The notes below the pieces were generated by a model that saw nothing but the letters and a program-made list of their open reading frames with translations, was not told where the DNA came from and did not search any database. The position numbers and the translations under genes are program-made. Source: Acidobacteriota bacterium (lineage in GTDB: Bacteria > Acidobacteriota > CAIWXX01). Taken from it: DNA of 64,000 nucleotides. The stretch is taken from assembly GCA_040755995.1 (NCBI GenBank), contig JBFMAF010000037.1, positions 1 to 64,000 of the forward strand. Reading direction: 5' to 3'. Positions 14,859 through 57,802 of the stretch are shown piece after piece. Positions within the stretch are counted from its first letter, which is position 1. The number at the start of each line of letters is the position of its first letter.

Positions 14859-14969
14859 GTCGCGAGTCTATCATCGTGCGGCGGGGCGCGCCAGGACGCC
14901 TCGCACGCGTCCTTGTTGGCCACCCAGCCCTATGCTACAATCTGCGCACCGAATTCGGGGGAAAACAGG

Positions 14970-16742
14970 ATGAAAGAGGGTTTGATTCAGAAAGGTTCGC
15001 TGCCTCAGATCGTTTCCGATGTCGTTGCCAATCGAAAGACAGGCGACATCCAGTGCACGAGGCAGCATGAAGATAAGCGTCTGTTCTTCAAGGACGGGGA
15101 GCTGGTCTTCGCATCGACGAACGTGGACGGCGAGCGCATCGGGCAGGTGCTGGTGGAGGCGGGTCTGGTCGATCCGACGATGCTCGAGGCCGCGCTGAGC
15201 ACCGTCTCACCAGGCAAGCGCACCGGCAGGATACTAGTCGTGGAAGGGGTCTTGACCCCGGAACAGCTCATACGCACGGTAGAGGACTTCATCCGACGCG
15301 TGACATGCTCGGTATTCGCATGGAAGGACGGGCGGGCCCGGTTCACCGAAGGTGACCATCCTGACATCGAAGACGTAGTGATCAAGTTGGATGCGGCCGA
15401 CATTCTGCTCGATGCATGCCGCAAGATTCCGGTTGGGTCGATCGCGGCGCAGGCGATCGTCAACCTTCAGGAGCCGCTCAGGTTTGCCATGGACCCGGCC
15501 CTGCGATTCCAGAAGCTGTCGTTCAGCTCGGACGAGGCGACGGTGATGGGCTGCCTCAACAATTTCACGACCGCCGAGGAGGTTTGCGAGGCCAGCCCGC
15601 TCGACAGGGATTCCACGCTGAAGCTCATTTGCGGACTCATCGCCGGCGGTATCGTCGAGCCCCCCGGACCCGCGCGACCGGTGCAGGAAGCGGTTCCCCC
15701 GGTCGCCGCTGCGGCGACGCGGGAGGAATTCGAGCTGCCGGATGACATCTTCGGCGAGCCACTGGTGCCCGAAGAAGTCGCACCGCCGCCCAAGCGACCG
15801 GCCGCGCCTGCACGCGGGCCTCTCGTGACGTCGCGGCCCGCTGCCACGCCGCAGCGACCCGCCGCGCTCCCATCGCGGCCGGCCGCCCCGGCAATCCCGC
15901 CTCGTCCTCAGGCCCTGATGCCGGTGGAGGAGGCGCTCGAACCTGAGGCCGAGCCCATTGAGCAGCTGGCAGCCCCCGTGCAGGAGCCGCCGAGGCAGAT
16001 AACGAGCGAACAGGAGGCGGCGGAGAGGGGGCAGATCCTGGAGGTCCATCGCAGGCTGGCGCTCATGGATTACTACACGCTGCTCGAGGTCGATCGCCGA
16101 TCCAGCGATGCCGAGATTCGAACGTCATACTTCGCCTTGGCCAAGAAGTACCACCCGGATCGCTGCGTCGCGCCTCACCTGAGCGAGTGCAAGACGGCGA
16201 TGGAGGAGATCTACGGCCAGATCAACAAGGCATACGAGACTCTACGGGACGCTGAGCGGCGGCGCCAGTATGATGCGCGCGGTGCGAAGCCGGAGGGTGA
16301 CGAGCGTGAAGGCGTTTCGAAGGAGTCGGACGAGCAGATTGCGGACAAGCACTTCCGCATGGCCAAGACGCTCTACGACCAGAGAAACTACGCCGATGCC
16401 ATCCAGCTGCTGAAGGTCGCCACACGGCTCAATCCCGGCAAAGGCAACTACCTGTTCTTGCTCGCCAACGCCCTCGTCAAGGCCAACAACCGCAGAGAGG
16501 CCGAGGAGACCTACTTGAAGGCGATCGAGAAGGATCGCTTCAACTCGGACATCTACGTCTCTCTCGGCATGCTTTACAAGGCGTCGAACATGGGCAAGCG
16601 GGCCGAGGGGATGTTCCAGAAGGCCCTCGAGCTCAACGATAACCACCCGATCGCTCTCCGCGAGCTCGCTGCGCTGAGACCGCCCGATCAGGGCTTGCTG
16701 AAGTCGTTCCTGAAAAAAGCATCAGACAAGGTGAAGCGCTAG
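14970..16742 (+). CDS. DUF4388 + Pro-rich linker + DnaJ + TPR protein
   Basis: DYYTLLEV...LAKKYHPDR J-domain, C-terminal TPRs, N-terminal LFFKDGELVFA; TGCTACAAT promoter-like element upstream. Confidence 0.88.
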   Translation: MKEGLIQKGSLPQIVSDVVANRKTGDIQCTRQHEDKRLFFKDGELVFASTNVDGERIGQVLVEAGLVDPTMLEAALSTVSPGKRTGRILVVEGVLTPEQLIRTVEDFIRRVTCSVFAWKDGRARFTEGDHPDIEDVVIKLDAADILLDACRKIPVGSIAAQAIVNLQEPLRFAMDPALRFQKLSFSSDEATVMGCLNNFTTAEEVCEASPLDRDSTLKLICGLIAGGIVEPPGPARPVQEAVPPVAAAATREEFELPDDIFGEPLVPEEVAPPPKRPAAPARGPLVTSRPAATPQRPAALPSRPAAPAIPPRPQALMPVEEALEPEAEPIEQLAAPVQEPPRQITSEQEAAERGQILEVHRRLALMDYYTLLEVDRRSSDAEIRTSYFALAKKYHPDRCVAPHLSECKTAMEEIYGQINKAYETLRDAERRRQYDARGAKPEGDEREGVSKESDEQIADKHFRMAKTLYDQRNYADAIQLLKVATRLNPGKGNYLFLLANALVKANNRREAEETYLKAIEKDRFNSDIYVSLGMLYKASNMGKRAEGMFQKALELNDNHPIALRELAALRPPDQGLLKSFLKKASDKVKR

Positions 16743-16746
16743 AGAA

Positions 16747-16781
16747 CTTCAAACCCGGCGCCGTGGAGCGGCGCCTGCGAC
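16747..16781. repeat. Single CRISPR-repeat-like hairpin unit in the cas6 5' UTR
   Basis: CTTCAAACCC-GGCGCCG-TGGAG-CGGCGCC-TGCGAC; the reverse strand reads GTCGCA...GGGTTTGAAG; single copy. Confidence 0.4.
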
Positions 16782-16791
16782 GAGGAGCCCA

Positions 16792-17505
16792 ATGCCGGCC
16801 GCGATAGTGCTCGCTTGTGGCGAGCCCCTCAGCCAGGATCCGATCGAACTGCTTCGCGCGCTGGTGGGACGGGTCGTGGATGCGGAGCTGGTCGAGCAGG
16901 AGTTGCAGTCCTTTACGATCGCCTCTGTGGCGCCGGAGACCGGGGGGCCGGCTTTTCGCTTGAGCACGACTGACGAGAAGCTGGAATTGGCGATAGCGAA
17001 GCTCGGGGAAACAGAGATCGTCGTCACCGGCAAACCGCGTGCCTTGCGCCAGGTCGACGGACACCCCTTGGCCGGAAGACGATCGTACGAGGAGCTTTTC
17101 CGGAAAGCCCCGCCGGCCTCGAAGGATTTCTCGTTCGAGTTCCTGTCGCCGACCTGCTTTCGCCACGGCGACGTCGACGTGCCGCTCCCCCTGTCGCGTC
17201 CACTGTTCAACGGGCTCTATCGCCGTTGGAAGCACTCTCACACACGCTTCGCCCTCCACGAGGACGTCGTGGAAGCCGCCGAACACCACCTCGCCATCGC
17301 CACACTGCGCATCGAGTCGCAGACGTTCAAGGAAGACAAGACGACGCGGACGGGCTTCGTCGGCAAGGTGACCTTCCGAGTATCGGGCAGCGTCAACCGC
17401 GACATCCTGCACGAGCTCAACGCGCTGGCTGACTTCGCCTTCTATGCCTCCGTCGGCCAACGGACGCAAGTCGGGATGGGGTTGATCAGGAGGCTCGGCC
17501 AGTAG
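16792..17505 (+). CDS. cas6: Orphan CRISPR-associated endoribonuclease Cas6 homologue (divergent)
   Basis: HPLAG..SYEEL, FEFLSPTCFR, PLP....F..L..RW, GFVGKV and LNALADFAFYASVGQRTQVGMG (C-terminal G-rich loop); GAGGAG RBS. Confidence 0.88.
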   Translation: MPAAIVLACGEPLSQDPIELLRALVGRVVDAELVEQELQSFTIASVAPETGGPAFRLSTTDEKLELAIAKLGETEIVVTGKPRALRQVDGHPLAGRRSYEELFRKAPPASKDFSFEFLSPTCFRHGDVDVPLPLSRPLFNGLYRRWKHSHTRFALHEDVVEAAEHHLAIATLRIESQTFKEDKTTRTGFVGKVTFRVSGSVNRDILHELNALADFAFYASVGQRTQVGMGLIRRLGQ

Positions 17506-17654: not shown

Positions 17655-19244
17655 CTACACGCTGCGGTAGACCTCGTAATCGATTTCGGGGAAGATGGTG
17701 TCCTTCGACTCCACGTCCGAGAGCCAGTCCAGATCGAGATCGTTCTGGATGATGCCCTCGTAGATCCTGGTGAAGCGGTGGATGTGATCACGGAATCGCT
17801 TGGTGGCGTACGGAACCGTTGTGCCCGTGGTCATGATGAAAGCCCAATCGGAGCTCTCTGCCAGCAGCAGCTCGCGCGCAGCCTGGTTGAGAGCGCGCCC
17901 GAGCGCGCCCGAGGCGGCCGGGAACGAGTTCGCCAGCTCCACCATCCTCTCCTCCGCCACGTGCTGGTGGCGGTAGATCCATTCGTTGCTGCCGTTCACC
18001 CAGACGCGATTGTAGCCGCCCGCCCCCCATGTCGACATCGACGGCGTCTGCCGCTGGAAGTCGCCGTTCTCGGCGAGATAGGACGTGGGATTCGACAGCG
18101 AGATCCGGCTCTGTTCCTTCGCAATCTTGCGAATGAGGAAATTCAAAAACTGCGGACCCTCGAACCACCAGTGCCCGAACAGTTCCGCGTCAAACGCGGA
18201 GACCACCATCGGCTTGCGCCGGAGGAGATCTGCCAGGTGTTCGATCTGCATCTCCCGGTTGTGCATGAAGTTGCCGGCGTGCACGACCGCGCGTTCGGTC
18301 GCCCACTGCGGGTGGTACGGCTCCTTCAGATGCAGATCCACGCGGCCCGTGACCCGGTGATACTTGATCCCGAGATTCCGGCGCACACCGTCCGGATGCA
18401 GATACGACTTCACGTAGTCGTACTCGGCGTCGTAGCCCAGATCGCGGTAGAACTCGCGGTAGCAGGGATCGCCCGGGTAGCCCTCCGTGGCGCTCCAGAT
18501 CTGCCGGCTGCTCTCTACGTCGCGCGCGAAGGCCTTCAGCCCCTGCGGGGTCTCGACCGGAGCGAATATGCCGTGACGCGGCCGCGGATTGCCATACACG
18601 ACTCCGTGCGAGTCGACGAAGAAGTACTTCAGCCCGGCATCGCTCAGAAGCGCGTCGTCGGCGGGGTTGTACCCGCATTCGGGAAGCCAGAAGCCCGAGG
18701 GCGGCCGGCCGAAATGCTTGATGTAGTTGGCGCGCGCCACCTGTGTCTGCGCGCTGCGCGCCTCCTCCCGCACGATCAGCGGCAGAAATGCGTGGGTGGC
18801 CGCGCTGGTCAGGATGTCAATGTGCCCGGCATCCTGCAGCGCCTTGTAGCCGGCCAGAAGATTCCCTTTGTGCCTCTCGAAGAGAATATCGCGGGAGGTC
18901 GAGAAATGCCGCAGGTACATCTGCGAGACCTCGTCCAGCGGCGGGTTGTTCCGATTTCGCAGAACCTCCTTCGCGGTGAGCTCGACGAGTCTGTCCAGAT
19001 GCCGCGCGTACCGCTCCATCAAGAGCCCGTCGCTGAGCATCTCGCAGAGCGGCGGAGTCAGAGAGATGGTCATCTTGAACGGCACGCCGTCCTCGGCGAG
19101 CTGTTCGAGTACGTAGAGGATCGGGACGTAGGTCTCGGAGATCGCCTCGAACAGCCAGTCCTCTTCCAGGAAGCTGGGATGTTCCGGATGCCTCACGAAC
19201 GGTAGATGCGCGTGAAGAACGATGGCGAGATATCCCTTGTGCAT
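17655..19244 (-). CDS. GH57 1,4-alpha-glucan branching enzyme (DUF1957)
   Basis: LHAHLPFVRHPE, GFWLPECGY, FDAELFGHWWFEG and ARELLLAESSDWAF. Confidence 0.95.
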   Translation of the reverse strand: MHKGYLAIVLHAHLPFVRHPEHPSFLEEDWLFEAISETYVPILYVLEQLAEDGVPFKMTISLTPPLCEMLSDGLLMERYARHLDRLVELTAKEVLRNRNNPPLDEVSQMYLRHFSTSRDILFERHKGNLLAGYKALQDAGHIDILTSAATHAFLPLIVREEARSAQTQVARANYIKHFGRPPSGFWLPECGYNPADDALLSDAGLKYFFVDSHGVVYGNPRPRHGIFAPVETPQGLKAFARDVESSRQIWSATEGYPGDPCYREFYRDLGYDAEYDYVKSYLHPDGVRRNLGIKYHRVTGRVDLHLKEPYHPQWATERAVVHAGNFMHNREMQIEHLADLLRRKPMVVSAFDAELFGHWWFEGPQFLNFLIRKIAKEQSRISLSNPTSYLAENGDFQRQTPSMSTWGAGGYNRVWVNGSNEWIYRHQHVAEERMVELANSFPAASGALGRALNQAARELLLAESSDWAFIMTTGTTVPYATKRFRDHIHRFTRIYEGIIQNDLDLDWLSDVESKDTIFPEIDYEVYRSV

Positions 19245-19321: not shown

Positions 19322-19852
19322 TCACCGGCCGAAGAAGTACAGTGCGTTTGACCCCTGGGCTTTGACGCGTTCGAGTGTGGACTGGCTCTTCGGCCAGCTC
19401 CAATCGGCCGGCGCCTTCACGACCAATGATGTGCCCGCCACCACACACACGCCCGCCAGGGTCTTCTCCACGGCCTCGGCCACCGGCTCGAACTCGTATG
19501 GCGGGTCCATGAACACGACGTCGTAGGCGCTGGAGGTGTCGCGGAGGAACTGGAAGTAGTTCACCTCGTGGATGCGGGCCTTGGCCTGCGCCTTCAGGCC
19601 GCGCAGGTTCTTGCGGATGACGTCTCCTGTGTCCCTGTCCGCCTCGACGAAATCCACCCACGCCGCACCGCGCGACAGCGCCTCCAAACCTACGACACCG
19701 CTCCCCGCAAACGCATCCAGAAAGCGGCAGTCGAGGATGCGCGCGCCCAGGATGTCGAACATGCTCTTTCGGAGGAGCACCGGAATGGGGCGCACACCGG
19801 GGCGCGGCGAAATCAACTTCCGGCCGCGGTAGATGCCGGCTATGATCTCCAT
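19322..19852 (-). CDS. rsmD: 16S rRNA m2G966 methyltransferase
   Basis: IIAGIYRGRKL, FLDAFAGSGVVGLEALSRGA and VFMDPPY. Confidence 0.93.
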   Translation of the reverse strand: MEIIAGIYRGRKLISPRPGVRPIPVLLRKSMFDILGARILDCRFLDAFAGSGVVGLEALSRGAAWVDFVEADRDTGDVIRKNLRGLKAQAKARIHEVNYFQFLRDTSSAYDVVFMDPPYEFEPVAEAVEKTLAGVCVVAGTSLVVKAPADWSWPKSQSTLERVKAQGSNALYFFGR

Positions 19853-19853
19853 C

Positions 19854-20438
19854 TCACGGGACGAGGATCAGCCTTTCCTTGTTGATCCTGACTTCCTTGA
19901 TGCCATACGGCAGGGCAAACCAGTCCTTGAGAGAATGAGCCTTGCCCGATTGCCTCTCGGTCAGGTACTGGACAATCGCATCGAGAGCGCTCACGGGAAT
20001 TGGAAGGAAGCCGACCCTGATGCTCTCCGGTTGGAAATAGCCCCACCCCTTTTGAGTGGTCAGCCTGCCCGTAAGGTATATCGGTATAGGACGCTTGAGG
20101 AAATCGGGGATCTCGCTGTTCTGAGACTTCACGTCGCTGAGGTCCACATCCGCTTGAGCGACCACCGAGTTCTCCTGCAGCCCGATGTCGATGTTCTTCA
20201 GATTGGGAGGCAGCTGCGAGCCGGCCTTGTAATACAGGTAGGAGTTCAACTCCCTCTCGGTGAATACCACCGTCTTCGGCAGTTCCTTCCCCTGTTGTCG
20301 TCTCTTGAGCACGTCATTGAGCACGCGTTCCATCTTGTCGGCCGCCGCCTGGGAAATTCGGCTGTCCTCGTAGGCTCCTGCCCATGGGACAAACGCCAGT
20401 ATCAGCCAGCCAAGTATGAGACCCCTTCTTCCATACAT
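19854..20438 (-). CDS. Secreted hypothetical protein
   Basis: Signal peptide; FTERELNSYL pattern; abuts rsmD. Confidence 0.7.
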   Translation of the reverse strand: MYGRRGLILGWLILAFVPWAGAYEDSRISQAAADKMERVLNDVLKRRQQGKELPKTVVFTERELNSYLYYKAGSQLPPNLKNIDIGLQENSVVAQADVDLSDVKSQNSEIPDFLKRPIPIYLTGRLTTQKGWGYFQPESIRVGFLPIPVSALDAIVQYLTERQSGKAHSLKDWFALPYGIKEVRINKERLILVP

Positions 20439-20690: not shown

Positions 20691-22097
20691 ATGGGATCGA
20701 GGCGAGGTCACTCCACGGGGCCGGGCAAGACGGCTTCACTCCGCGTCATCCCGTCGATCGAGGAGCTGATGAACGCAACGAAGGTAGCCTCCGCGGTGGA
20801 GCGGCGCGGGCGGGCGGCGATGGTCCGAGCTTGCCGGCTGGCCACCGGCGCGCTTCGACGCGCGATTCTCGCCGGAGCCGCTGCCCCGGCTAATCCTGTC
20901 GAATCGCTGGCGGATGAGGCCATCCGGCGGGCAGACGAGGCCGCCCGCCCGTCGCTCGTGCGCGTTATCAACGCGACCGGCGTCCTGCTGCACACCAATC
21001 TCGGCCGGGCTCCTCTGGATGCCCCGCTGATCGAACGTGCAGCCGCGAGGGCAGGGGGATACTCGAACCTCGAGATGGACCTCGACACGGGCACGCGCGG
21101 CAGCCGGCTGGTGCATCTGCAGCGACACTTCGAAGCCTTCTTCCCTGGATCGAGCAGCCTTGTCGTCAACAACAACGCCGCAGCGGTGCTGCTGATCTTG
21201 AACACGCTGGCCCAAGACCGAGAAGTTGTCGTGTCGCGTGGAGAGCTGGTCGAGATCGGCGGGTCATTCCGCATCCCGGATGTCTGCGAGCGGAGCGGTG
21301 CGAAGCTGGTAGAGATCGGCACCACCAATCGCACCCGAATCGCCGATTATGCGCGTGCGATCAACAGCGACACGGCACTTCTCATGCACGTTCACCCAAG
21401 CAACTATCGAGTGATCGGGTTCACCGAGTCGGTGGATCACGTCGAGCTCGCCCAGTTGGGCCGAAAGAAGAAGATTGTTGTGGTGGCGGACCTTGGTAGT
21501 GGTGCTGTCGGGGAGTTCCCTGAGGCGCTGGCGCGGGAACCGTCGCCGGCTCAGTACCTGCGAATGGGATTCGGCCTCGTCTGTTTCTCCGGCGACAAGC
21601 TGCTGGGTGCGTGCCAGGCGGGGATCATCGCCGGGCGGCGGCACTTGATCGACAGGCTCAAGCGCAACCCGCTTTACCGCGCGCTGCGCGTCGACAAGCT
21701 GACGATAGCGATTCTCGAAGAGGCGCTCATGAGTGCGAAGTCGGGCCGCCGGGATGTCTTGCTGCACAAGATGGTGGCAACACCCGCGACTGAGATCCGT
21801 GCGCGAGCGGACGCTCTCCTGGCAAGGCTCGCGGGACTGGCCGAGGCCAGAGTCGAGCCGGGGGAGTCGCTGGTCGGAGGCGGCTCAGCCACAGACTTGA
21901 GGCTGCCCAGCGCGGTCCTGGCGGTCAGGCCGAGAGGGATGCCGGAATCCGAGCTGCTGGCCGCGCTCCGCCGCAACCGGCCACCGGTCATCGCGCGTGT
22001 CGAGGGGCGGCGAGTCCTGATCGACCTGCGCACCGTGATGCCCGAGGACGATCAACTGCTCGCCGAGGCCCTGGAGAACGCGCTGAGAGGAGCTTGA
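20691..22097 (+). CDS. selA: L-seryl-tRNA(Sec) selenium transferase
   Basis: VINATGVLLHTNLGRAPL, YSNLE, VVNNNAAAV, SRGELVEIGGSFRIP, FSGDKLLG and RALRVDK. Confidence 0.96.
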   Translation: MGSRRGHSTGPGKTASLRVIPSIEELMNATKVASAVERRGRAAMVRACRLATGALRRAILAGAAAPANPVESLADEAIRRADEAARPSLVRVINATGVLLHTNLGRAPLDAPLIERAAARAGGYSNLEMDLDTGTRGSRLVHLQRHFEAFFPGSSSLVVNNNAAAVLLILNTLAQDREVVVSRGELVEIGGSFRIPDVCERSGAKLVEIGTTNRTRIADYARAINSDTALLMHVHPSNYRVIGFTESVDHVELAQLGRKKKIVVVADLGSGAVGEFPEALAREPSPAQYLRMGFGLVCFSGDKLLGACQAGIIAGRRHLIDRLKRNPLYRALRVDKLTIAILEEALMSAKSGRRDVLLHKMVATPATEIRARADALLARLAGLAEARVEPGESLVGGGSATDLRLPSAVLAVRPRGMPESELLAALRRNRPPVIARVEGRRVLIDLRTVMPEDDQLLAEALENALRGA

Positions 22098-22229: not shown

Positions 22230-22757
22230 TCACTTGAACAGCTTCTCGATCGTCCCCATGGGTAGGAAGAGGCGTCGGGGTATCTTGGGTAGCGACAGGA
22301 ATCCGTACTTGATGTAGAAGCCGGACGCGGCCTCGTCCTTCGCGTCGACCACAACGCCCGCAGAGGCCAATTGCCTACTTGCCATCAGCGAGCGATGGAG
22401 TGCGTCCATCATTAGCAGTTCCCCGACTCGCCGACCCCGGAATTCGGTACTCACCGCCAGCCGGCCGAGCAGTGTTGCCGGCACGAGCGGATATCTCGGC
22501 AGCTTCCGGGCGATCTCTTCCGGAATGGCATCCAGTGCGACCGCGTATTGCGAGATCGTGTAGTAGCCGGCGATCGCCCTGCCATCATTCGTCGCAACGA
22601 ACGCGACTGCCACCTTTCTCCTGATATCCTGCCCCGCCTGATGGTGCAGATAGTTGTCGAGCGCGCCAACGCCGCATGTGAACGCTTTGCGGTCATGGTG
22701 AGCCGCGAGCTGCTCGATGTGGAACTGATGCCCGTCCTGATATCGTCTAGCCTCCAA
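22230..22757 (-). CDS. GNAT family type II toxin (AtaT/TacT/KacT-like)
   Basis: HDRKAFTCG..LDNYL, PATLLGRLAV and VVDAKDE.A..FY..YGF. Confidence 0.92.
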   Translation of the reverse strand: MEARRYQDGHQFHIEQLAAHHDRKAFTCGVGALDNYLHHQAGQDIRRKVAVAFVATNDGRAIAGYYTISQYAVALDAIPEEIARKLPRYPLVPATLLGRLAVSTEFRGRRVGELLMMDALHRSLMASRQLASAGVVVDAKDEAASGFYIKYGFLSLPKIPRRLFLPMGTIEKLFK

Positions 22758-23051
22758 TCAGAGCCCCTCTCGCTTCCCGTAGCGTGCAGCCGCGGCTCGG
22801 AGGGCCTTGTTCGGTGGCGGTGGATTCAGGATTGCATTCACAAAGACGTCCCGCGCTCCGTCCCGCAGGTGCAGGATTTCGAACTCTTGGATCGTCTTTG
22901 CCGCCGCCTCCTGTGCGCTCTGCACAAGAAAGTCGGTCAGTGAGCTCCCGCGCAAATGTGCCGCACGCTCGATGAGCTGCTTCTGGCTCCTCGTGACCCT
23001 CGCCTCCAGCCGCTCCCGCCTTCTGGGACTGTGATCAGTTTCTAGTCTCAT
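22758..23051 (-). CDS. DUF1778 RHH antitoxin
   Basis: ERLEARVT..QK.LIERAA...G.SLTDF...F...I.NPPPPN..LR.A; degenerate palindrome GTACGGCAATTCGCCG at 23071-23086. Confidence 0.93.
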   Translation of the reverse strand: MRLETDHSPRRRERLEARVTRSQKQLIERAAHLRGSSLTDFLVQSAQEAAAKTIQEFEILHLRDGARDVFVNAILNPPPPNKALRAAAARYGKREGL

Positions 23052-34831: not shown

Positions 34832-35044
34832 TCATCTGGTGGATGTCCGTACCCTGTTCTTGGCCTCACCCAGTGCGATGAACTCGCCCTTCCCCTCGAT
34901 GACCCTCTTCGTCCTCTCCGCCAGGACTACCTCGTGCCATTGGGGGGAAGGCACATTGCTCGGGTCGCGGCACAAATCATCCCAGAGGCGCTCCATCGCG
35001 GAAAGTTCTTCAGAGATCGTCATCTTCTCCAGTACTAGTTCCAT
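34832..35044 (-). CDS. Addiction-module antitoxin-like protein (orphan)
   Basis: MTISEELSAMERLWDDL....PSPQWH..VLAER pattern; no RelE/ParE gene follows. Confidence 0.8.
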   Translation of the reverse strand: MELVLEKMTISEELSAMERLWDDLCRDPSNVPSPQWHEVVLAERTKRVIEGKGEFIALGEAKNRVRTSTR

Positions 35045-52336: not shown

Positions 52337-52672
52337 CTATCCGATTATCTCGTTGAGGCCGTCGACGATGTGATCGAGGATCTCGGGTGAGACACGGCCG
52401 AGCTTCTTGCCCAGCCGCCGTGTGCTCAGCGTGCGCACCTGGCTGATCTTGACCCACGATCTCTTCGGCAGCCAACTGACGTGCAGTTCGCAGGTAAGAG
52501 GGAACTCCGCTTTCTGTGTCTGGCTGCTCAGCGCCATGGCGACGACGGTGCCAGACCGCTCATTGAAGACATCGTGGCTGAGGACAAGCACGGGACGCTT
52601 TCCAGACTGCTCCTGCCCCGTTGTCGAATCCAGGTCTGCCCACACCACATCTCCTCTCAATACTGCGGCCAT
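52337..52672 (-). CDS. mazF: PemK/MazF family toxin
   Basis: RGDVVWADL...[14 protein letters not shown]...FN and QVRTLS..RL. Confidence 0.92.
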
Positions 52673-52899
52673 TCCGAAATCTCCGCTGAGAGGCCGATCT
52701 CCGCCAGCTCTCGCTCTTCGCTCGGATCCAGCTTCGCGCACTCCCGAGCAAGGCGGCTCCGATCAAGCCTCGCCAGCTTCTCTTCGACAGCCTCCTGGAT
52801 CAGCCGGCTGCGGCTCGGATAGAGCGATTTCTGAACAAGTCGGTCCACGCGTTTGAGGACACTCTCCTGAATGGTCACCGCCACTTTCGCGACGCTCAT
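52657..52899 (-). CDS. CopG/RHH antitoxin
   Basis: KVAVTI...VDRLV....[11 protein letters not shown]...[11 protein letters not shown]; overlaps the toxin start. Confidence 0.9.
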
Positions 52900-53127: not shown

Positions 53128-54501
53128 TCACTCCACCGGCGCCTCCTCGATCAGGCCCGCGGCCGCCTCCTTCTTCCCTAGCCGCGCGCGGCGTTTTTCG
53201 AAATCGGTGAGATAACGAGCGAGCCTGGAATCGTCGCGGCCCAGGTCGCGCAGCCGCTCGATGCGGATGAGCGCGTCCTCGACCACCGCTAGCGCGTCGG
53301 CGAAGCGCTTTTCGTGATGCTCGAGCTGGATGGCCATCTGCTGCAGGAACTCGATTGCCGCTTCGCCGTCCTCCTGCGCTCCCTCGCGCCAGAGCGCCAT
53401 GGCCCGGTCCCGTTTCCCGGCCCGCCGATGCATCAGCGACGCGCGCCTGATCGCACGCACCTTCCGCTCAGCGTCGACGCCGCCCTCGATGGCCTCCGTG
53501 AAGAGTGTTGCCGACTCCTCGTACTTTTCTCTACGTTCGTAGAAGAATGCGAGGCCCAGCGCGTCGCGCGTATCCTTCAAGTATGCCTGGGTTCTTCCTG
53601 CCACCAGATCGTGGCAGACAACCGTCAGGCACATCAGCGAGACGATGTCGAGGCGGTTGTGATGGAAGACCCTGGAGATCCAGTACGGGTTGCGGGTCCT
53701 GAGGTAGCGGAAGTAGACGTTCGGGATCTCGGCCCCCGGAATGTCCCCGTGGCGCTCGACGCCGAGCAGGTCGTACTCGAGGCTCTTCAGCGAACAGCTC
53801 TCCAGGCGTTCGCGCCAGATCTGGCGCGCGGGATAGAGGAGGTCGAGGTGGGGGAGGAGGCTGAGGCGGGTGCGGCGCCGCGCAAGCACGTTGCGCCCCT
53901 CGAACAGCGGCAGGTCGAACGCCCGGCCGTTGAATGTGACCACCGCATCGAAGCGGGCTGCGAACGCCTCGACGTTGTCGAGAATGTCGATCTCGTCGCT
54001 GAACTCGCGCATGAAGTGCTGCCGGACGCGGAACTCCTCGCCCTCGAAGTAGCCCAGCCCGACCATGAATGCGTAGTTGGAGCTGCCAGGCGATAGGCCG
54101 GTGGTCTCGAGATCAAAGTAGGCGACCCGAGAGGGATCGATGCCTCTGAAGGAATCGTCGCGGCTGATTAGCGCGAGTGTGTCGCCGGAAAGATCGAGCC
54201 CTGCGCCGACTCGGATCCGGCCGTGGTACGAATCGATCGGGAAGGGACATTCGGCCGCCGCTCCGCCGGCGAAAATGTCCGGCAGGAACGCCGTGTCGGC
54301 GGGAGTGTCCGGCTGATCGGCCTCGCCTGCCCAGGCGGCATCCTCATCCGATGGCCGAAGCGTGCGACGGCGCGGCCTGGATGCAGCCGCCGCGGCGGTA
54401 CGCTGGAGGAGCCTCTCCAGCTTCTCCCTGACGCTCCCGGACTCCTCCTCCCGTATCCGCCTCCACTGGTCCTCGATCGGCGGCTTCTTCTGCTCAGGCA
54501 C
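53128..54501 (-). CDS. YprB/MrfB-like RNase H-fold exonuclease with TPRs
   Basis: FDLETTGL, VTFNGRAFDLP, HLDLLYPAR and HNRLDIVSL; C-terminal TPR-like helices. Confidence 0.88.
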   Translation of the reverse strand: MPEQKKPPIEDQWRRIREEESGSVREKLERLLQRTAAAAASRPRRRTLRPSDEDAAWAGEADQPDTPADTAFLPDIFAGGAAAECPFPIDSYHGRIRVGAGLDLSGDTLALISRDDSFRGIDPSRVAYFDLETTGLSPGSSNYAFMVGLGYFEGEEFRVRQHFMREFSDEIDILDNVEAFAARFDAVVTFNGRAFDLPLFEGRNVLARRRTRLSLLPHLDLLYPARQIWRERLESCSLKSLEYDLLGVERHGDIPGAEIPNVYFRYLRTRNPYWISRVFHHNRLDIVSLMCLTVVCHDLVAGRTQAYLKDTRDALGLAFFYERREKYEESATLFTEAIEGGVDAERKVRAIRRASLMHRRAGKRDRAMALWREGAQEDGEAAIEFLQQMAIQLEHHEKRFADALAVVEDALIRIERLRDLGRDDSRLARYLTDFEKRRARLGKKEAAAGLIEEAPVE

Positions 54502-54518
54502 GGCTGCGCATCCTGGTA

Positions 54519-54992
54519 TCAGACCTCGTTGTTCTCCCCTTCCAGGAGTCGCAGCGACGGAAAGTAGTTCCTGTAGAGTCCGCGCATGTCACGCGTCACC
54601 AGGGCATCTGCCCGCACCAGCGCATGCGCCCCGATCAAGAAATCCGCGATCAGCGGCTTGCGCACATCGACACGCCTGCCGCATTCGCAGCGCGCAGAGA
54701 TCCAGAGCCGGCGCTTGCGCTTGTCGCCTGCATACTGGAGCCAGGCCGATCCGGCCGCATGGCCCGTTTCCTCGTCAATCGGCTCGACGGTGAAGCCCGT
54801 CTCCTGGCAGAACCGGACCAGGCCACGCTCGTCGCCGCCGAAGGCCGCGTACAGCTCGGCATAGACAACCGGACACATCACCAATGCGCCGGCACCCTTG
54901 GCATGGTCCAAGAGTCCCTTCGAGGCCTCGGTGAAAGCAGCGTCCGGCAAAAGGATATCGAGCAGCACGTTGGTATCGACAGCGAATCTCAC
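54519..54992 (-). CDS. PIN domain (VapC) toxin
   Basis: VDTNVLLD, VVYAEL, IADFLIGAHA and LVTRD. Confidence 0.92.
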   Translation of the reverse strand: MRFAVDTNVLLDILLPDAAFTEASKGLLDHAKGAGALVMCPVVYAELYAAFGGDERGLVRFCQETGFTVEPIDEETGHAAGSAWLQYAGDKRKRRLWISARCECGRRVDVRKPLIADFLIGAHALVRADALVTRDMRGLYRNYFPSLRLLEGENNEV

Positions 54993-55225
54993 CGGTCCTC
55001 TCCGCGCATCGCGTCCACGAGATCGTCCGACCTGCGGCCCTTCAGGTGCGAGAGAGCCCCGACCCAACGATCGAACACCGACTTCTGCGCCGCCTTCCGC
55101 AGCGTGTACCCGCCGCGCTTGTCACGCCTGAGCTCCACACGGTCGCCTGCACGCAGCCCCAGCTCGTCGCGAATCTGCTTCGGCAGAGTCATCTGCCCCT
55201 TTACCGTCAAGGTCGCATGTGCCAT
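54989..55225 (-). CDS. AbrB/MazE family antitoxin
   Basis: ATLTVKGQMTLPKQIRDELGL.AGDRV. Confidence 0.92.
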   Translation of the reverse strand: MAHATLTVKGQMTLPKQIRDELGLRAGDRVELRRDKRGGYTLRKAAQKSVFDRWVGALSHLKGRRSDDLVDAMRGEDR

Positions 55226-55227
55226 GC

Positions 55228-55271
55228 CTTACCTCCTCGGTAAGTCTAACGTCTCCTTACTCACACGTCAA
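55228..55271 (-). promoter_or_regulatory. TA promoter/operator
   Basis: TTGACG-N17-TAGACT with CTTAC/GTAAG half-sites at 55228, 55240 and 55256. Confidence 0.6.
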
Positions 55272-55417
55272 TGACGATTTCCTCGATGGGTGCTTAGCGG
55301 ATCTGGAGGGTTTGGCCGCCGCTCCCTAGTCGTACCCGCACCCGTTCCCGACCCACACTTCTCCGCTACGCGAGCGGCTACGGGCATGATCGTTAGATTC
55401 GTTTTGCCCCCGGCGCC

Positions 55418-57802
55418 TCACCCGTCGGGTGCCTGGCCCAGGCGCGTGAGAATCTCCGCGACCATTCGCTTGAGATCGTGGGACGGGTTGACTTGCGGGC
55501 CGATGCACGATGGGCAGCCCCCGGCGCACTCGCACGTGCGAACGACTGCGAGCGCCTCCTGCTGCAGCTTCGGCGCGAACCGGTGCAGCGGTTCGCTGAG
55601 GCCTATGCCGCCGGGGTAGTTGTCGAAGATGAAGACGACCGGCTCGAAGCTCCCGGGCGTGGCCTCCGCCTGCCGCCAGCCGGGCTGCCGGAGCGGCGCC
55701 TGGGTGCGGTTGTCGCAGACGGCTTCGTCCAGGTCGCGCACGTCGCACATGAGGAAGAGAGGCGCCAGGCGATGGAGCAGGTAGGCGAGGCCCCACACCG
55801 CCAGCAGCCGCTCATCGGGGCTCCCGCCGAGCGACCTCATGACGTGCTCGCTCACGCGCACCCAGTAAGAGGTCGTGTGCATCTCGATCTGAGGCAGCTG
55901 CAGGTTGCCGAATCCGACGTTCTCCATCGTGTGGAACTTGATCTTCTTGAACCCCACCACCTGCCGCGCCACATGCACCTCGCCGTGCGAGGACCGCCCG
56001 CCCGTCAGATCATTTCCGCGAAATTCCTCCAAGATTCGCACGTCCCGGTACGACACGGCATCGGTAAAATACTCGACGTCGGTCTTCTTCACGTACGCCT
56101 TCCGCTCGTCGTAGTCCATCTTTTCCACGATGTACTGCTTGCCTTCGAGCAGGTATATGGCCTTCTCGTGCAGTGTCGTCAGTGCCGACCTGAAGTCCAC
56201 CTCGGCGATCACCTGCGGCTCGTGCGTCTGGTCCACGACGACGAAGTTGTCCGAGCTGATCGAGCGCAGGCTCACGGCGTCTGCGGGGTATGCCTCTTGC
56301 ACCCAGTAGTACTTCCCCTGGTTCAGGTGAAGGAAACCGCGCTCGCTGAGCATCGCGAGGATCTCGCGCAGATCGCGTCTGCCGAAGCGCTCATCGACCT
56401 CGATCGGCAGCTCGAAGGCTGCGCACTTGAGATGGTCGAGGAAGATGTTCAGGTTGTCGGGGTTTATCAGCCCCATCTCGGGGTTCTGAGAAAAGAAGTA
56501 GGCCGGGTGGTTGATGATGAACTGATCGAGCGGGCTGGAGCTTGCCACGAGCAGCGCGAGCGACGGCGATCCGCGCCGCCCGCAGCGGCCCGCCTGCTGC
56601 CAGGTCGACGTGATCGTTCCCGGATAGCCGGCCATGATCGAGACGTCGAGCTGTCCGACGTCTATGCCGAGCTCCAGCGCGTTGGTAGACACGACACCGC
56701 GGATCTCGCCGTTGCGCAGCCCGGTCTCGATCTCGCGCCTGCGCTTCGGCAGGTAGCCGCCGCGGTAGCCGCGCACGCTGTCTGTGTCGAGCAGCCCCTT
56801 TTCGACGTCCTCCTTGAGGTACCTCAGCAGGACCTCGGTGTTCAGCCGGCTGCCGGTGAAGATGATCGTCTGGAAGCCGTTCTTGATCAGGCGCGACGCC
56901 AGCGACCGGGATTCCTGGACGTATGACCGCCGTATCCCGAGCTCGCGATCGACCACCGGCGGGTTGTAGAAGACGAAGTACTTCTCGGCGGCCGGCGCTC
57001 CGTTCTGCTCGACAAGCTCGACCTCGTCCTCGAGCATCGCCGCTGCCAGCTCGCGCGGATTGGCGATAGTGGCCGACGAACAGATGAACAGCGGGTTACT
57101 GCCGTAAAAGCGGCAGAGCCGCTTCAGGCGCCGGAAGATGTTGCAGAGATGGCTTCCGAAGATCCCCCGGTAGTAGTGCAGCTCGTCGACTACCACGAAC
57201 TGCAGGTTCTCGAAGAACCTCGCCCACTTCGTGTGGCACGGGAGGATGCCCGTGTGGAGCATGTCGGGGTTGGTGAGGGCAATCTGCGCATCCGAACGGA
57301 TGGCCTTGCGCGCATCACTCGGAGTGTCGCCGTCGTAAGTGTGAGTCTTGACGCGCGAAGGCAGCAGGTCGCTCAGCCGCTTCAGCTCCGCCAGCTGATC
57401 CTGCGCCAGCGCCTTCGTCGGAAACAGATAGAAGGCGCGACTCGACGGGTCCTTGAGTATCCTGTCGATCACGGGCAGGTTGTAGCAGAGTGTCTTGCCG
57501 GATGCGGTCGGCGTCACGACCACAAGGTGCTTGCCTGCATTCGCGGCTTCGAGCGCGAGGCGCTGGTGGATGTACAGCTTCTCGATGCCCCGCCGCCTCA
57601 GCGCCTCTACCAGGTCGCCATGCAGAAACTCCGGGAATTCAGCGAACTCCCCGTCTCTGGCCGGGATCTTGCGGATTGCCGTGATCCGCCCGGACCTCGC
57701 GTATCGATCCTCCAGATCGCGCACGGCGTCGGCGAGCGAGTCCATTTGCGAGTAGAGGCTCAGCTGCGATTCCGACCCCTTGTCAGGTTGGTCAGCCATC
57801 AC
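55418..57802 (-). CDS. YprA/MrfA-like DEAH helicase with DUF1998 Zn domain
   Basis: TPTASGKT, DELH, SATIAN, QQAGRCGR and the C-terminal CEC.GGCPSC. Confidence 0.93.
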   Translation of the reverse strand: MMADQPDKGSESQLSLYSQMDSLADAVRDLEDRYARSGRITAIRKIPARDGEFAEFPEFLHGDLVEALRRRGIEKLYIHQRLALEAANAGKHLVVVTPTASGKTLCYNLPVIDRILKDPSSRAFYLFPTKALAQDQLAELKRLSDLLPSRVKTHTYDGDTPSDARKAIRSDAQIALTNPDMLHTGILPCHTKWARFFENLQFVVVDELHYYRGIFGSHLCNIFRRLKRLCRFYGSNPLFICSSATIANPRELAAAMLEDEVELVEQNGAPAAEKYFVFYNPPVVDRELGIRRSYVQESRSLASRLIKNGFQTIIFTGSRLNTEVLLRYLKEDVEKGLLDTDSVRGYRGGYLPKRRREIETGLRNGEIRGVVSTNALELGIDVGQLDVSIMAGYPGTITSTWQQAGRCGRRGSPSLALLVASSSPLDQFIINHPAYFFSQNPEMGLINPDNLNIFLDHLKCAAFELPIEVDERFGRRDLREILAMLSERGFLHLNQGKYYWVQEAYPADAVSLRSISSDNFVVVDQTHEPQVIAEVDFRSALTTLHEKAIYLLEGKQYIVEKMDYDERKAYVKKTDVEYFTDAVSYRDVRILEEFRGNDLTGGRSSHGEVHVARQVVGFKKIKFHTMENVGFGNLQLPQIEMHTTSYWVRVSEHVMRSLGGSPDERLLAVWGLAYLLHRLAPLFLMCDVRDLDEAVCDNRTQAPLRQPGWRQAEATPGSFEPVVFIFDNYPGGIGLSEPLHRFAPKLQQEALAVVRTCECAGGCPSCIGPQVNPSHDLKRMVAEILTRLGQAPDG

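Follow-up and report, generated by a model that had tools for sequence, protein, structure and literature searches.

Re-use of CRISPR parts has been described for several Cas proteins, and a non-catalytic Cas6 homologue of Pyrococcus horikoshii (presumably the protein of PDB entry 3QJJ) is known together with CRISPR repeat RNA, not as a lineage-fixed gene linked to housekeeping functions. According to the portion of PMC3902920 drawn on here, Thermus thermophilus Cas6A (TtCas6A) uses His37 as general acid (the H37A mutant being ~17,000-fold slower) with Arg22 as a minor contact, and reads its RNA through Arg129, Arg130, His134, Lys226 and Ser228, H37A and R129A also weakening RNA binding by 70- to 290-fold, while the active site of TtCas6B is made of His23, His42 and Tyr256. 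The same text names the P. horikoshii homologue as non-catalytic, and has the Sulfolobus solfataricus Cas6 using conserved helix-1 lysines; the Sulfolobus proteins SsCas6 and SsoCas6 carry no His at the His37 position and are active. As far as these partial sources go, each half of the case described below has a precedent, in an unlinked but active enzyme (TtCas6A), in a non-catalytic homologue (P. horikoshii) and in His-free active enzymes (Sulfolobus). In the sections used of three reviews on derived or re-used CRISPR parts (PMC8730458, PMC6452270 and PMC8616872), no stand-alone exapted Cas6 is mentioned, and no description of a lineage-fixed CRISPR-independent Cas6, or of the present clade, was found in a mostly open-access literature, supplements excluded.

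The gene considered here is an orphan cas6 of an Acidobacteriota bacterium, located in a window of 64,000 nucleotides (the whole stretch of DNA that was analysed). Its surroundings comprise the following features:

16792..17505, + strand: orphan cas6-derived gene, 237 aa, tandem ferredoxin/RRM fold, ATG start
16782..16787, + strand: Shine-Dalgarno-like GAGGAG, 4 nt 5' of the ATG
16757..16775, + strand: intergenic GC hairpin 5' of the ribosome-binding site, a single genome copy, partly kept in the closest relative only
14970..16742, + strand: DUF4388-DnaJ-TPR gene, co-oriented upstream neighbour in the 4/4 loci with DNA
14913..14941, + strand: sigma-70-like promoter candidate (TTGTTG, 17 nt, TGn-TACAAT) ahead of the DnaJ-TPR gene
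17655..19244, - strand: GH57 1,4-alpha-glucan branching enzyme gene, convergent neighbour in 3/3 genomes
19322..19852, - strand: RsmD-type methyltransferase gene (PF03602), belonging to the conserved block
20691..22097, + strand: selA (PF03841), closing the conserved block, start codon uncertain

The reading frame is intact and preceded by a ribosome-binding site, as the original prediction had it, and its start (M-P-x-A) stands at the same position in all nine orthologues. The predicted position, 49 nt behind the stop of the DnaJ-TPR gene (16742) and convergent on GH57, was likewise confirmed, and both GC content and codon use of the gene are host-like. The claim that no other cas gene, array or mobility gene lies nearby also held: Pfam searches of 56 window ORFs and six neighbours returned no other Cas, integrase or transposase family, and neither the window nor the 360-kb contig to which it belongs contains a CRISPR array. 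As the window starts with the first base of that contig, the '16 kb upstream' represent the full assembled sequence in that direction. The extended -10 box of the promoter candidate, which a strict consensus scan missed, is kept in three genera.

Profiles and fold agree that this 237-aa ORF is a true member of the Cas6 family. Residues 116-230 match PF10040 (E 2.5e-16, 60.6 bits for a cut-off of 25), as do 8/8 orthologues, and the TIGR01877 score of 52.3 bits lies below the cut-off of 58.65, as does that of the CRISPR-linked cas6 of the same host (49.3). The N-terminal domain PF19308, found in the latter at E 1.7e-18, is recognized in none of the eight orthologues at E 0.1. An AlphaFold2 model built from 123 sequences (mean pLDDT 92.9) contains both RRM domains, finds its best solved matches in T. 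thermophilus Cas6A and Cas6B (Foldseek E 2.4e-19, TM 0.81), and superimposes on TtCas6A (TTHA0078; PDB 4C8Y, 4C8Z and 4C97), the best structural match, with Z 26.1 and an rmsd of 2.4 over 228 of 237 residues at 29% identity; ESM Atlas matches are PF10040 clusters only. TtCas6B (TTHB231) and the CRISPR-linked PF10040/PF19308 Cas6 proteins of type I/III loci share the same fold (Z 25.7), about 30% identity and the same C-terminal motifs, but their neighbouring cas genes are missing around the orphan, whose N-domain is shorter and in which TtCas6B His42 and Tyr256 are not kept. More distant are the P. horikoshii homologue (3QJJ, Z 14.2), a natural Cas6 of another subfamily that binds RNA without cutting, as is proposed for the orphan, and the Cas6b structure 4Z7K (only Z 12.1). 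Two features of the functional class, the catalytic His and the CRISPR linkage, are nevertheless missing in the orphan.

The residues concerned, together with those expected to contact RNA, are located as follows:

16855..16857, + strand: Arg22, invariant in 9/9 orthologues, possibly equivalent to TtCas6A Arg22 / TtCas6B His23
16888..16917, + strand: remodelled active-site loop, residues 33-42 (LVEQELQSFT), replacing the family's LH...KPFT
17161..17178, + strand: major-groove beta-hairpin, residues 124-129 (R/H-H-G/A-D-x-D), aligned with TtCas6A Arg129-Arg130...His134
17218..17262, + strand: clade-specific basic His-rich stretch, residues 143-157, within region 136-168
17449..17481, + strand: G-loop, residues 220-230, with Ser in place of the first Gly in 9/9, Lys/Arg224 (TtCas6A Lys226) kept

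The column of the general-acid His holds Val or Leu in 9/9 orthologues and His in 105/114 relatives (MAFFT alignment of 123 rows), and three sister sequences keep the LH motif. The predicted absence of His from the first 90 residues was borne out: the first His of the orphan is residue 91, and the orthologues have no conserved His in residues 1-90 in any register. MAFFT, hhalign and HMMER agree that the catalytic position falls on Val34 or the adjacent residue and not on Glu37, whereas an ungapped reading against TtCas6A makes Glu37 fall on His37. In the orthologues, the KPFT motif reads Q/A/L-S/T/A-F-T/S, and the position of TtCas6B Tyr256 is aliphatic or Thr. The G-loop reads ASVGQRTQVGMG and keeps three of the four Gly of the family pattern GhGxxxxxGhG, along with its basic residue; the departure from consensus noticed in the original prediction concerns the first Gly, which is Ser in 9/9 orthologues and in 2/114 relatives, and Gly in 111/114 relatives. 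That same prediction had equated LRAL with the LHA motif of helix 1, and this stands as one of two possible alignments; if it is right, the invariant Arg22 falls on the Arg22 with which TtCas6A contacts the phosphate, and the position may be kept and not lost. At this residue MAFFT opens a deletion, hhalign (with a 30-sequence profile) leaves the segment unaligned, and the hydrophobic pattern fits an equivalence with TtCas6A. Arg22 is the only Arg conserved in helix 1, beside acidic residues, unlike the lysines of S. solfataricus.

Comparison with TtCas6A gives a mixed picture of the RNA readers: the Lys226 position is Lys or Arg in 9/9 orthologues, and Thr225 and Arg233-Arg234 are kept, but the Arg129 position is His in 7/9 (Arg in 2/9), that of His134 is Asp, and that of Ser228 is Gln/Leu. 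Conservation is highest in regions 111-168 and 198-235 (74-80% identity, with 136-168 the best conserved at 80% on average), and region 32-45 reaches 60%, versus 25-43% on either side. Of the 70 invariant residues, 25 are found in 20% of relatives or fewer, and the invariant His125, His150 and His156 are rare outside the clade. The net charge of the protein ranges from -1 to -5, compared to a median of +4 in 114 relatives, and this acidic shift resides entirely in the N-domain (-5 to -8 versus a median of 0), which is also ~30 residues shorter (87-93 versus a median of 121), while the C-domain stays net positive and holds 8-14 His (median 3 in relatives). Because Arg22, Glu35, Gln36 and Glu37 are invariant and many of the invariant residues are rare in relatives, the active site is seen to be remodelled and not just eroded. 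The combination of Arg22 and the acidic Glu35-Gln36-Glu37 loop at the old active site could even point to new chemistry rather than none, and an acidic N-domain joined to a His-rich C-domain speaks against the simple picture of a 'dead Cas6' bound to a CRISPR-like hairpin.

How widespread is this protein? A protein search retrieved seven further clusters with 56-86% identity over the full length, beyond which identity drops to ~33%; a profile search recovered the same eight clusters, with a gap in score from 408 to 110 bits, and among 1.84 billion representatives a single one, itself a clade member, fell below 1e-30. The nine sequences of these eight clusters form one branch with 100/100 support and a stem of 1.07 changes per column, with tip branches of 0.03-0.34 (IQ-TREE, 41 rows, with bootstrap values not yet fully stable; FastTree on 127 rows is similar), and this branch nests among CRISPR-linked PF10040/PF19308 Cas6 proteins. 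The gene is present in 3/3 genomes of the host class (the host, G000, and two relatives, G001 and G002), belonging to three genera, and no clade member occurs in the 398 other genomes of a 401-genome sample of the phylum, in which five genomes hold a distant Cas6 at E 2.7e-22 or weaker. Fused or longer forms were absent among 8000 scored candidates, which is weak evidence, and none of 38 pattern matches could be confirmed as a viral copy.

All three copies sit inside the same housekeeping block. In 3/3 genomes DnaJ-TPR is followed by cas6, next by GH57, rsmD and an unnamed gene on the opposite strand, and last by selA, so that the dnaJ-cas6-GH57 synteny proposed as a check extends over three genera, and in a fourth locus (a 1.2-kb contig) a DnaJ-TPR gene likewise precedes cas6. 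The gap between the two genes measures 49, 54, 25 and 357 nt, and because it is only 25-54 nt in three of the four loci, DnaJ-TPR and cas6 are probably co-transcribed. Outside the class, no cas6 was seen within 1.5 kb on each side of DnaJ-TPR homologues (0/12 loci) or GH57 homologues (0/15 loci). The unnamed gene between rsmD and selA (window 19854-20390, - strand) encodes a conserved Acidobacteriota protein without Pfam family, for which ESM Atlas hints weakly at LmeA-like lipid-binding domains (score 0.83). G001 carries an insertion of ~3.5 kb (L021:12348-15864) between GH57 and rsmD, which leaves the dnaJ-cas6-GH57 core intact; by eye, its genes encode a transglutaminase-like protein and an ECF sigma factor with its partner. 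Another Acidobacteriota genome harbors a second cas6 (L057:1129-1926; G131:C1) between panC and an M20 peptidase gene (3.4 kb covered), which has neither an LH/KP motif nor a PF19308 match, and is sister to the Cmr2-linked cas6 of the same genome (L052); this gene may represent a younger, independent domestication.

The orphan evolves under purifying selection, which is strongest on the RNA-contacting C-domain. Three of six pairs give dN/dS values of 0.125-0.169 (the other three being saturated at synonymous sites), and the closest pair gives 0.17 (interval 0.11-0.27), with 0.32 (interval 0.16-0.65) for the N-domain and 0.11 for the C-domain. Between genera, the identity of the orphan Cas6 (58-60%) is comparable to that of rsmD, selA and dnaJ (53-65%), GH57 reaching 73-75%. 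The gene is thus neither absent from relatives nor decaying neutrally, and the terms 'orphan', 'degenerate' and 'domesticated' used for it in the original prediction are supported by the loss of the His in 9/9 sequences, the synteny in three genera and the purifying selection (dN/dS about 0.13-0.17).

Does the orphan serve the CRISPR systems of its host in trans, as TtCas6A does? TtCas6A, likewise encoded off CRISPR loci, has retained His37 and acts in trans on the repeats of its host, which it cuts, whereas the orphan combines Val/Leu with an acidic loop, and no unserved repeat family was found. The host genome has three arrays beside three cas1 loci: the first is a type I locus with its own two-domain Cas6 keeping both His, the second a type III-B locus with a Cas6-RT-Cas1 similar in its Cas6 part to the Marinomonas enzyme, and the third belongs to type I-G and has Csb2. 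A type I/III locus deprived of cas6 would have offered the orphan a normal substrate, and each of the three host arrays has its own processing enzyme (Cas6, Cas6-RT-Cas1 or Csb2, the Cas6 activity of the fusion being assumed). G001 has a III-B system, equipped with Cas6-RT-Cas1, as well as a III-D locus that shows no cas6 over the 16.9 kb covered, the arrays of the latter sharing their repeat family with the Cas6-RT-Cas1 locus. G002 yielded only I-C and I-E loci, with the caveat that arrays may escape notice in this 98%-complete assembly of ~180 contigs; apart from isolated pattern matches at chance level, nothing turned up there when RAMPs, Cas10, DevR-type Cas7, a further Cas6 and the other two repeat families were looked for. 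PF01881 and PF01905 are each absent from the three class genomes, no repeat family is common to all three, and no solo copy of the host's three repeats lies away from their own contigs at up to six mismatches. The resident CRISPR systems thus turn over, and the orphan Cas6 persists. In-trans processing of crRNA is unlikely, because each host array has its own enzyme and only I-C and I-E were found in G002, and we hold with good confidence that the orphan has no role in crRNA maturation.

Several observations on these CRISPR loci are worth recording in themselves. The host type I locus (L011:9664-17273; G000:C28) has a 65-repeat array, separate ORFs for a Cas3 helicase and a probable HD nuclease, and three effector genes (829, 289 and 278 aa) without Pfam or NCBIfam match, and possibly represents an unusual subtype. 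Cas6-RT-Cas1 fusions accompany type III-B in two genera of the class (L012:4237-7113, G000:C11; L044:1174-4041, G001:C318), and single repeat-like matches, off the arrays, occur in or at the far end of the III-B loci (G001:C318:5594 and G000:C11:111338), with 1 and 3 mismatches to a 21-nt pattern, which could be regulatory solo repeats. The III-D locus (L043; G001:C235:22000-38906) lies between two arrays, has neither cas1 nor cas6 in the part covered, and ends at the contig end.

The search for a target RNA was equally negative over the sequences covered. No hairpin next to the orphan is shared across genera (four intergenic regions of differing length), the only Rfam matches in the window are two tRNAs, the related loci L021 and L022 giving none, and no window of cas6, dnaJ or GH57 shows an excess of identical codons (P 0.50-0.87). 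A selenocysteine link suggested by the proximity of selA was dropped, as selA belongs to another transcript and these loci hold no tRNA-Sec or SECIS-type match. The original prediction of a hairpin-binding regulator or of an in-trans processor consequently fared less well than its other claims: no conserved hairpin or repeat-like target appeared, the N-domain is acidic, and His-free Cas6 proteins can still cut.

What, then, does this protein do? It is a class-specific, domesticated Cas6, probably re-used for a job outside immunity, and a CRISPR-independent RNA binder that does not cut is the reading that we tentatively prefer, at slightly less than an even chance. An intact fold whose RNA-contacting elements are the best conserved and whose G-loop Lys/Arg is kept, the loss of the catalytic His in a clade whose relatives and three sisters mostly retain it (TtCas6B Tyr256 being gone as well), and the combination of full branch support, long stem, presence in every class genome, constant neighbours and low dN/dS all argue for it; against it stand the missing target (no hairpin, no Rfam family beyond tRNAs, no synonymous excess and no solo repeat), the acidic shift, the His found in 7/9 sequences where TtCas6A has Arg129, a residue whose mutation, like that of His37, weakens RNA binding in the part of PMC3902920 used, and a synteny established on three genomes and four DNA loci that are all kin. 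A broader formulation, in which a Cas6A-type enzyme took on an invariant acidic loop in place of its His and turned into a sequence-specific factor of the core genome that binds or processes RNA, with a defined host target and without tie to immunity, is plausible, though appreciably below an even chance. The protein might also be a rebuilt, His-free ribonuclease (Arg22, Glu35/Glu37 and Lys/Arg224) cutting cellular RNA outside CRISPR, as suggested by the invariance of Arg22 and Glu35-37 in an otherwise variable domain, by the ungapped register, by the active His-free Sulfolobus enzymes (in the portions used of PMC3902920 and PMC5965381) and by Arg37, the active-site residue of a Cas6-RT-Cas1 (PMC8102632, likewise used in part). 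We regard such a nuclease as unlikely, if worth keeping in mind: known His-free Cas6 proteins use clusters of basic residues, according to the same part of PMC5965381, while the loop of the orphan is acidic, three alignment methods put Val34 or its neighbour on the His, and no substrate was found.

The acidic shift, the abundance of His in the C-domain with three of them invariant, and the co-orientation with DnaJ-TPR at 25-54 nt in 3/4 loci would equally suit a protein adaptor or metal-binding protein acting off nucleic acids, for example together with the co-transcribed DnaJ-TPR protein. The retention of the G-loop Lys/Arg, Thr225 and Arg233-Arg234 in a net positive C-domain, the 357-nt gap in the fourth locus, and the absence of cas6 from the 12 DnaJ-TPR loci outside the class make this function rather unlikely. 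A part in CRISPR immunity in trans, by processing, chaperoning or damping the crRNA of systems that come and go, would fit the presence of CRISPR-Cas in all three class genomes, the III-D locus of G001 without cas6 in the 16.9 kb covered, and the precedent of TtCas6A, off CRISPR loci yet active in the passages of PMC3902920 drawn on; it is quite unlikely given the lack of a common repeat family, the III-D repeat being shared with a Cas6-RT-Cas1 locus, the lost catalytic His, and the finding in G002 of only I-C and I-E, systems that rely on Cas5d and Cas6e. The loss of the catalytic residue, the faster N-domain (dN/dS 0.32) and the PF19308 domain missed in 8/8 could finally be taken as signs of a decaying relic of a lost CRISPR locus, a notion that deserves hardly any credit, because purifying selection is recorded across three genera: the frame is open in 9/9 sequences, dN/dS is far below 1 at a saturated synonymous distance, and identity between genera, codon use and GC resemble those of the neighbours and the host.

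As to its history, a gene for a Cas6A/B-type endoribonuclease settled behind the DUF4388-DnaJ-TPR gene in the ancestor of the class, changed fast for a period and lost its general-acid His (the order of these events being the unproven part), and has been inherited vertically since then like a housekeeping gene. The protein has probably ceased to serve crRNA maturation. If it is indeed a non-cutting RNA binder, it would be made from the DnaJ-TPR transcript and would hold a specific host RNA stem-loop, leaving it uncut, through Lys/Arg224 of the G-loop, the His-rich beta-hairpin and perhaps also Arg22. It would then act as a sequence-specific clamp by which the bound RNA is protected, sequestered or kept from being translated.

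Such a protein would be a natural 'dead Cas6' regulator without tie to immunity. The breadth of the finding is limited to eight protein clusters of one small class, known here from assemblies alone, and this clade represents a small, well-folded and testable case, with a 237-aa protein, an active homologue whose RNA complexes are solved, and few invariant replacement residues. Its ligand, once found, would reveal by what route an immune nuclease turns into a housekeeping factor, and the protein could yield a natural orthogonal RNA-binding module. In annotation practice, a lone 'cas6' is not evidence of CRISPR immunity.

Two further observations concern the rest of the window. Five toxin-antitoxin-type genes or pairs are scattered in this housekeeping region, at 282-539 (Phd/YefM), 22230-23051 (GNAT-TacA), 34835-35044 (addiction-module antitoxin), 52340-52899 (RHH-PemK) and 54522-55225 (AbrB-PIN). 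The last of them is inserted in a segment of the - strand (53131-57802) that encodes an MrfA/Hrq1-type DEAD helicase and an RNase H-like (MrfB-type) protein, and splits these genes.
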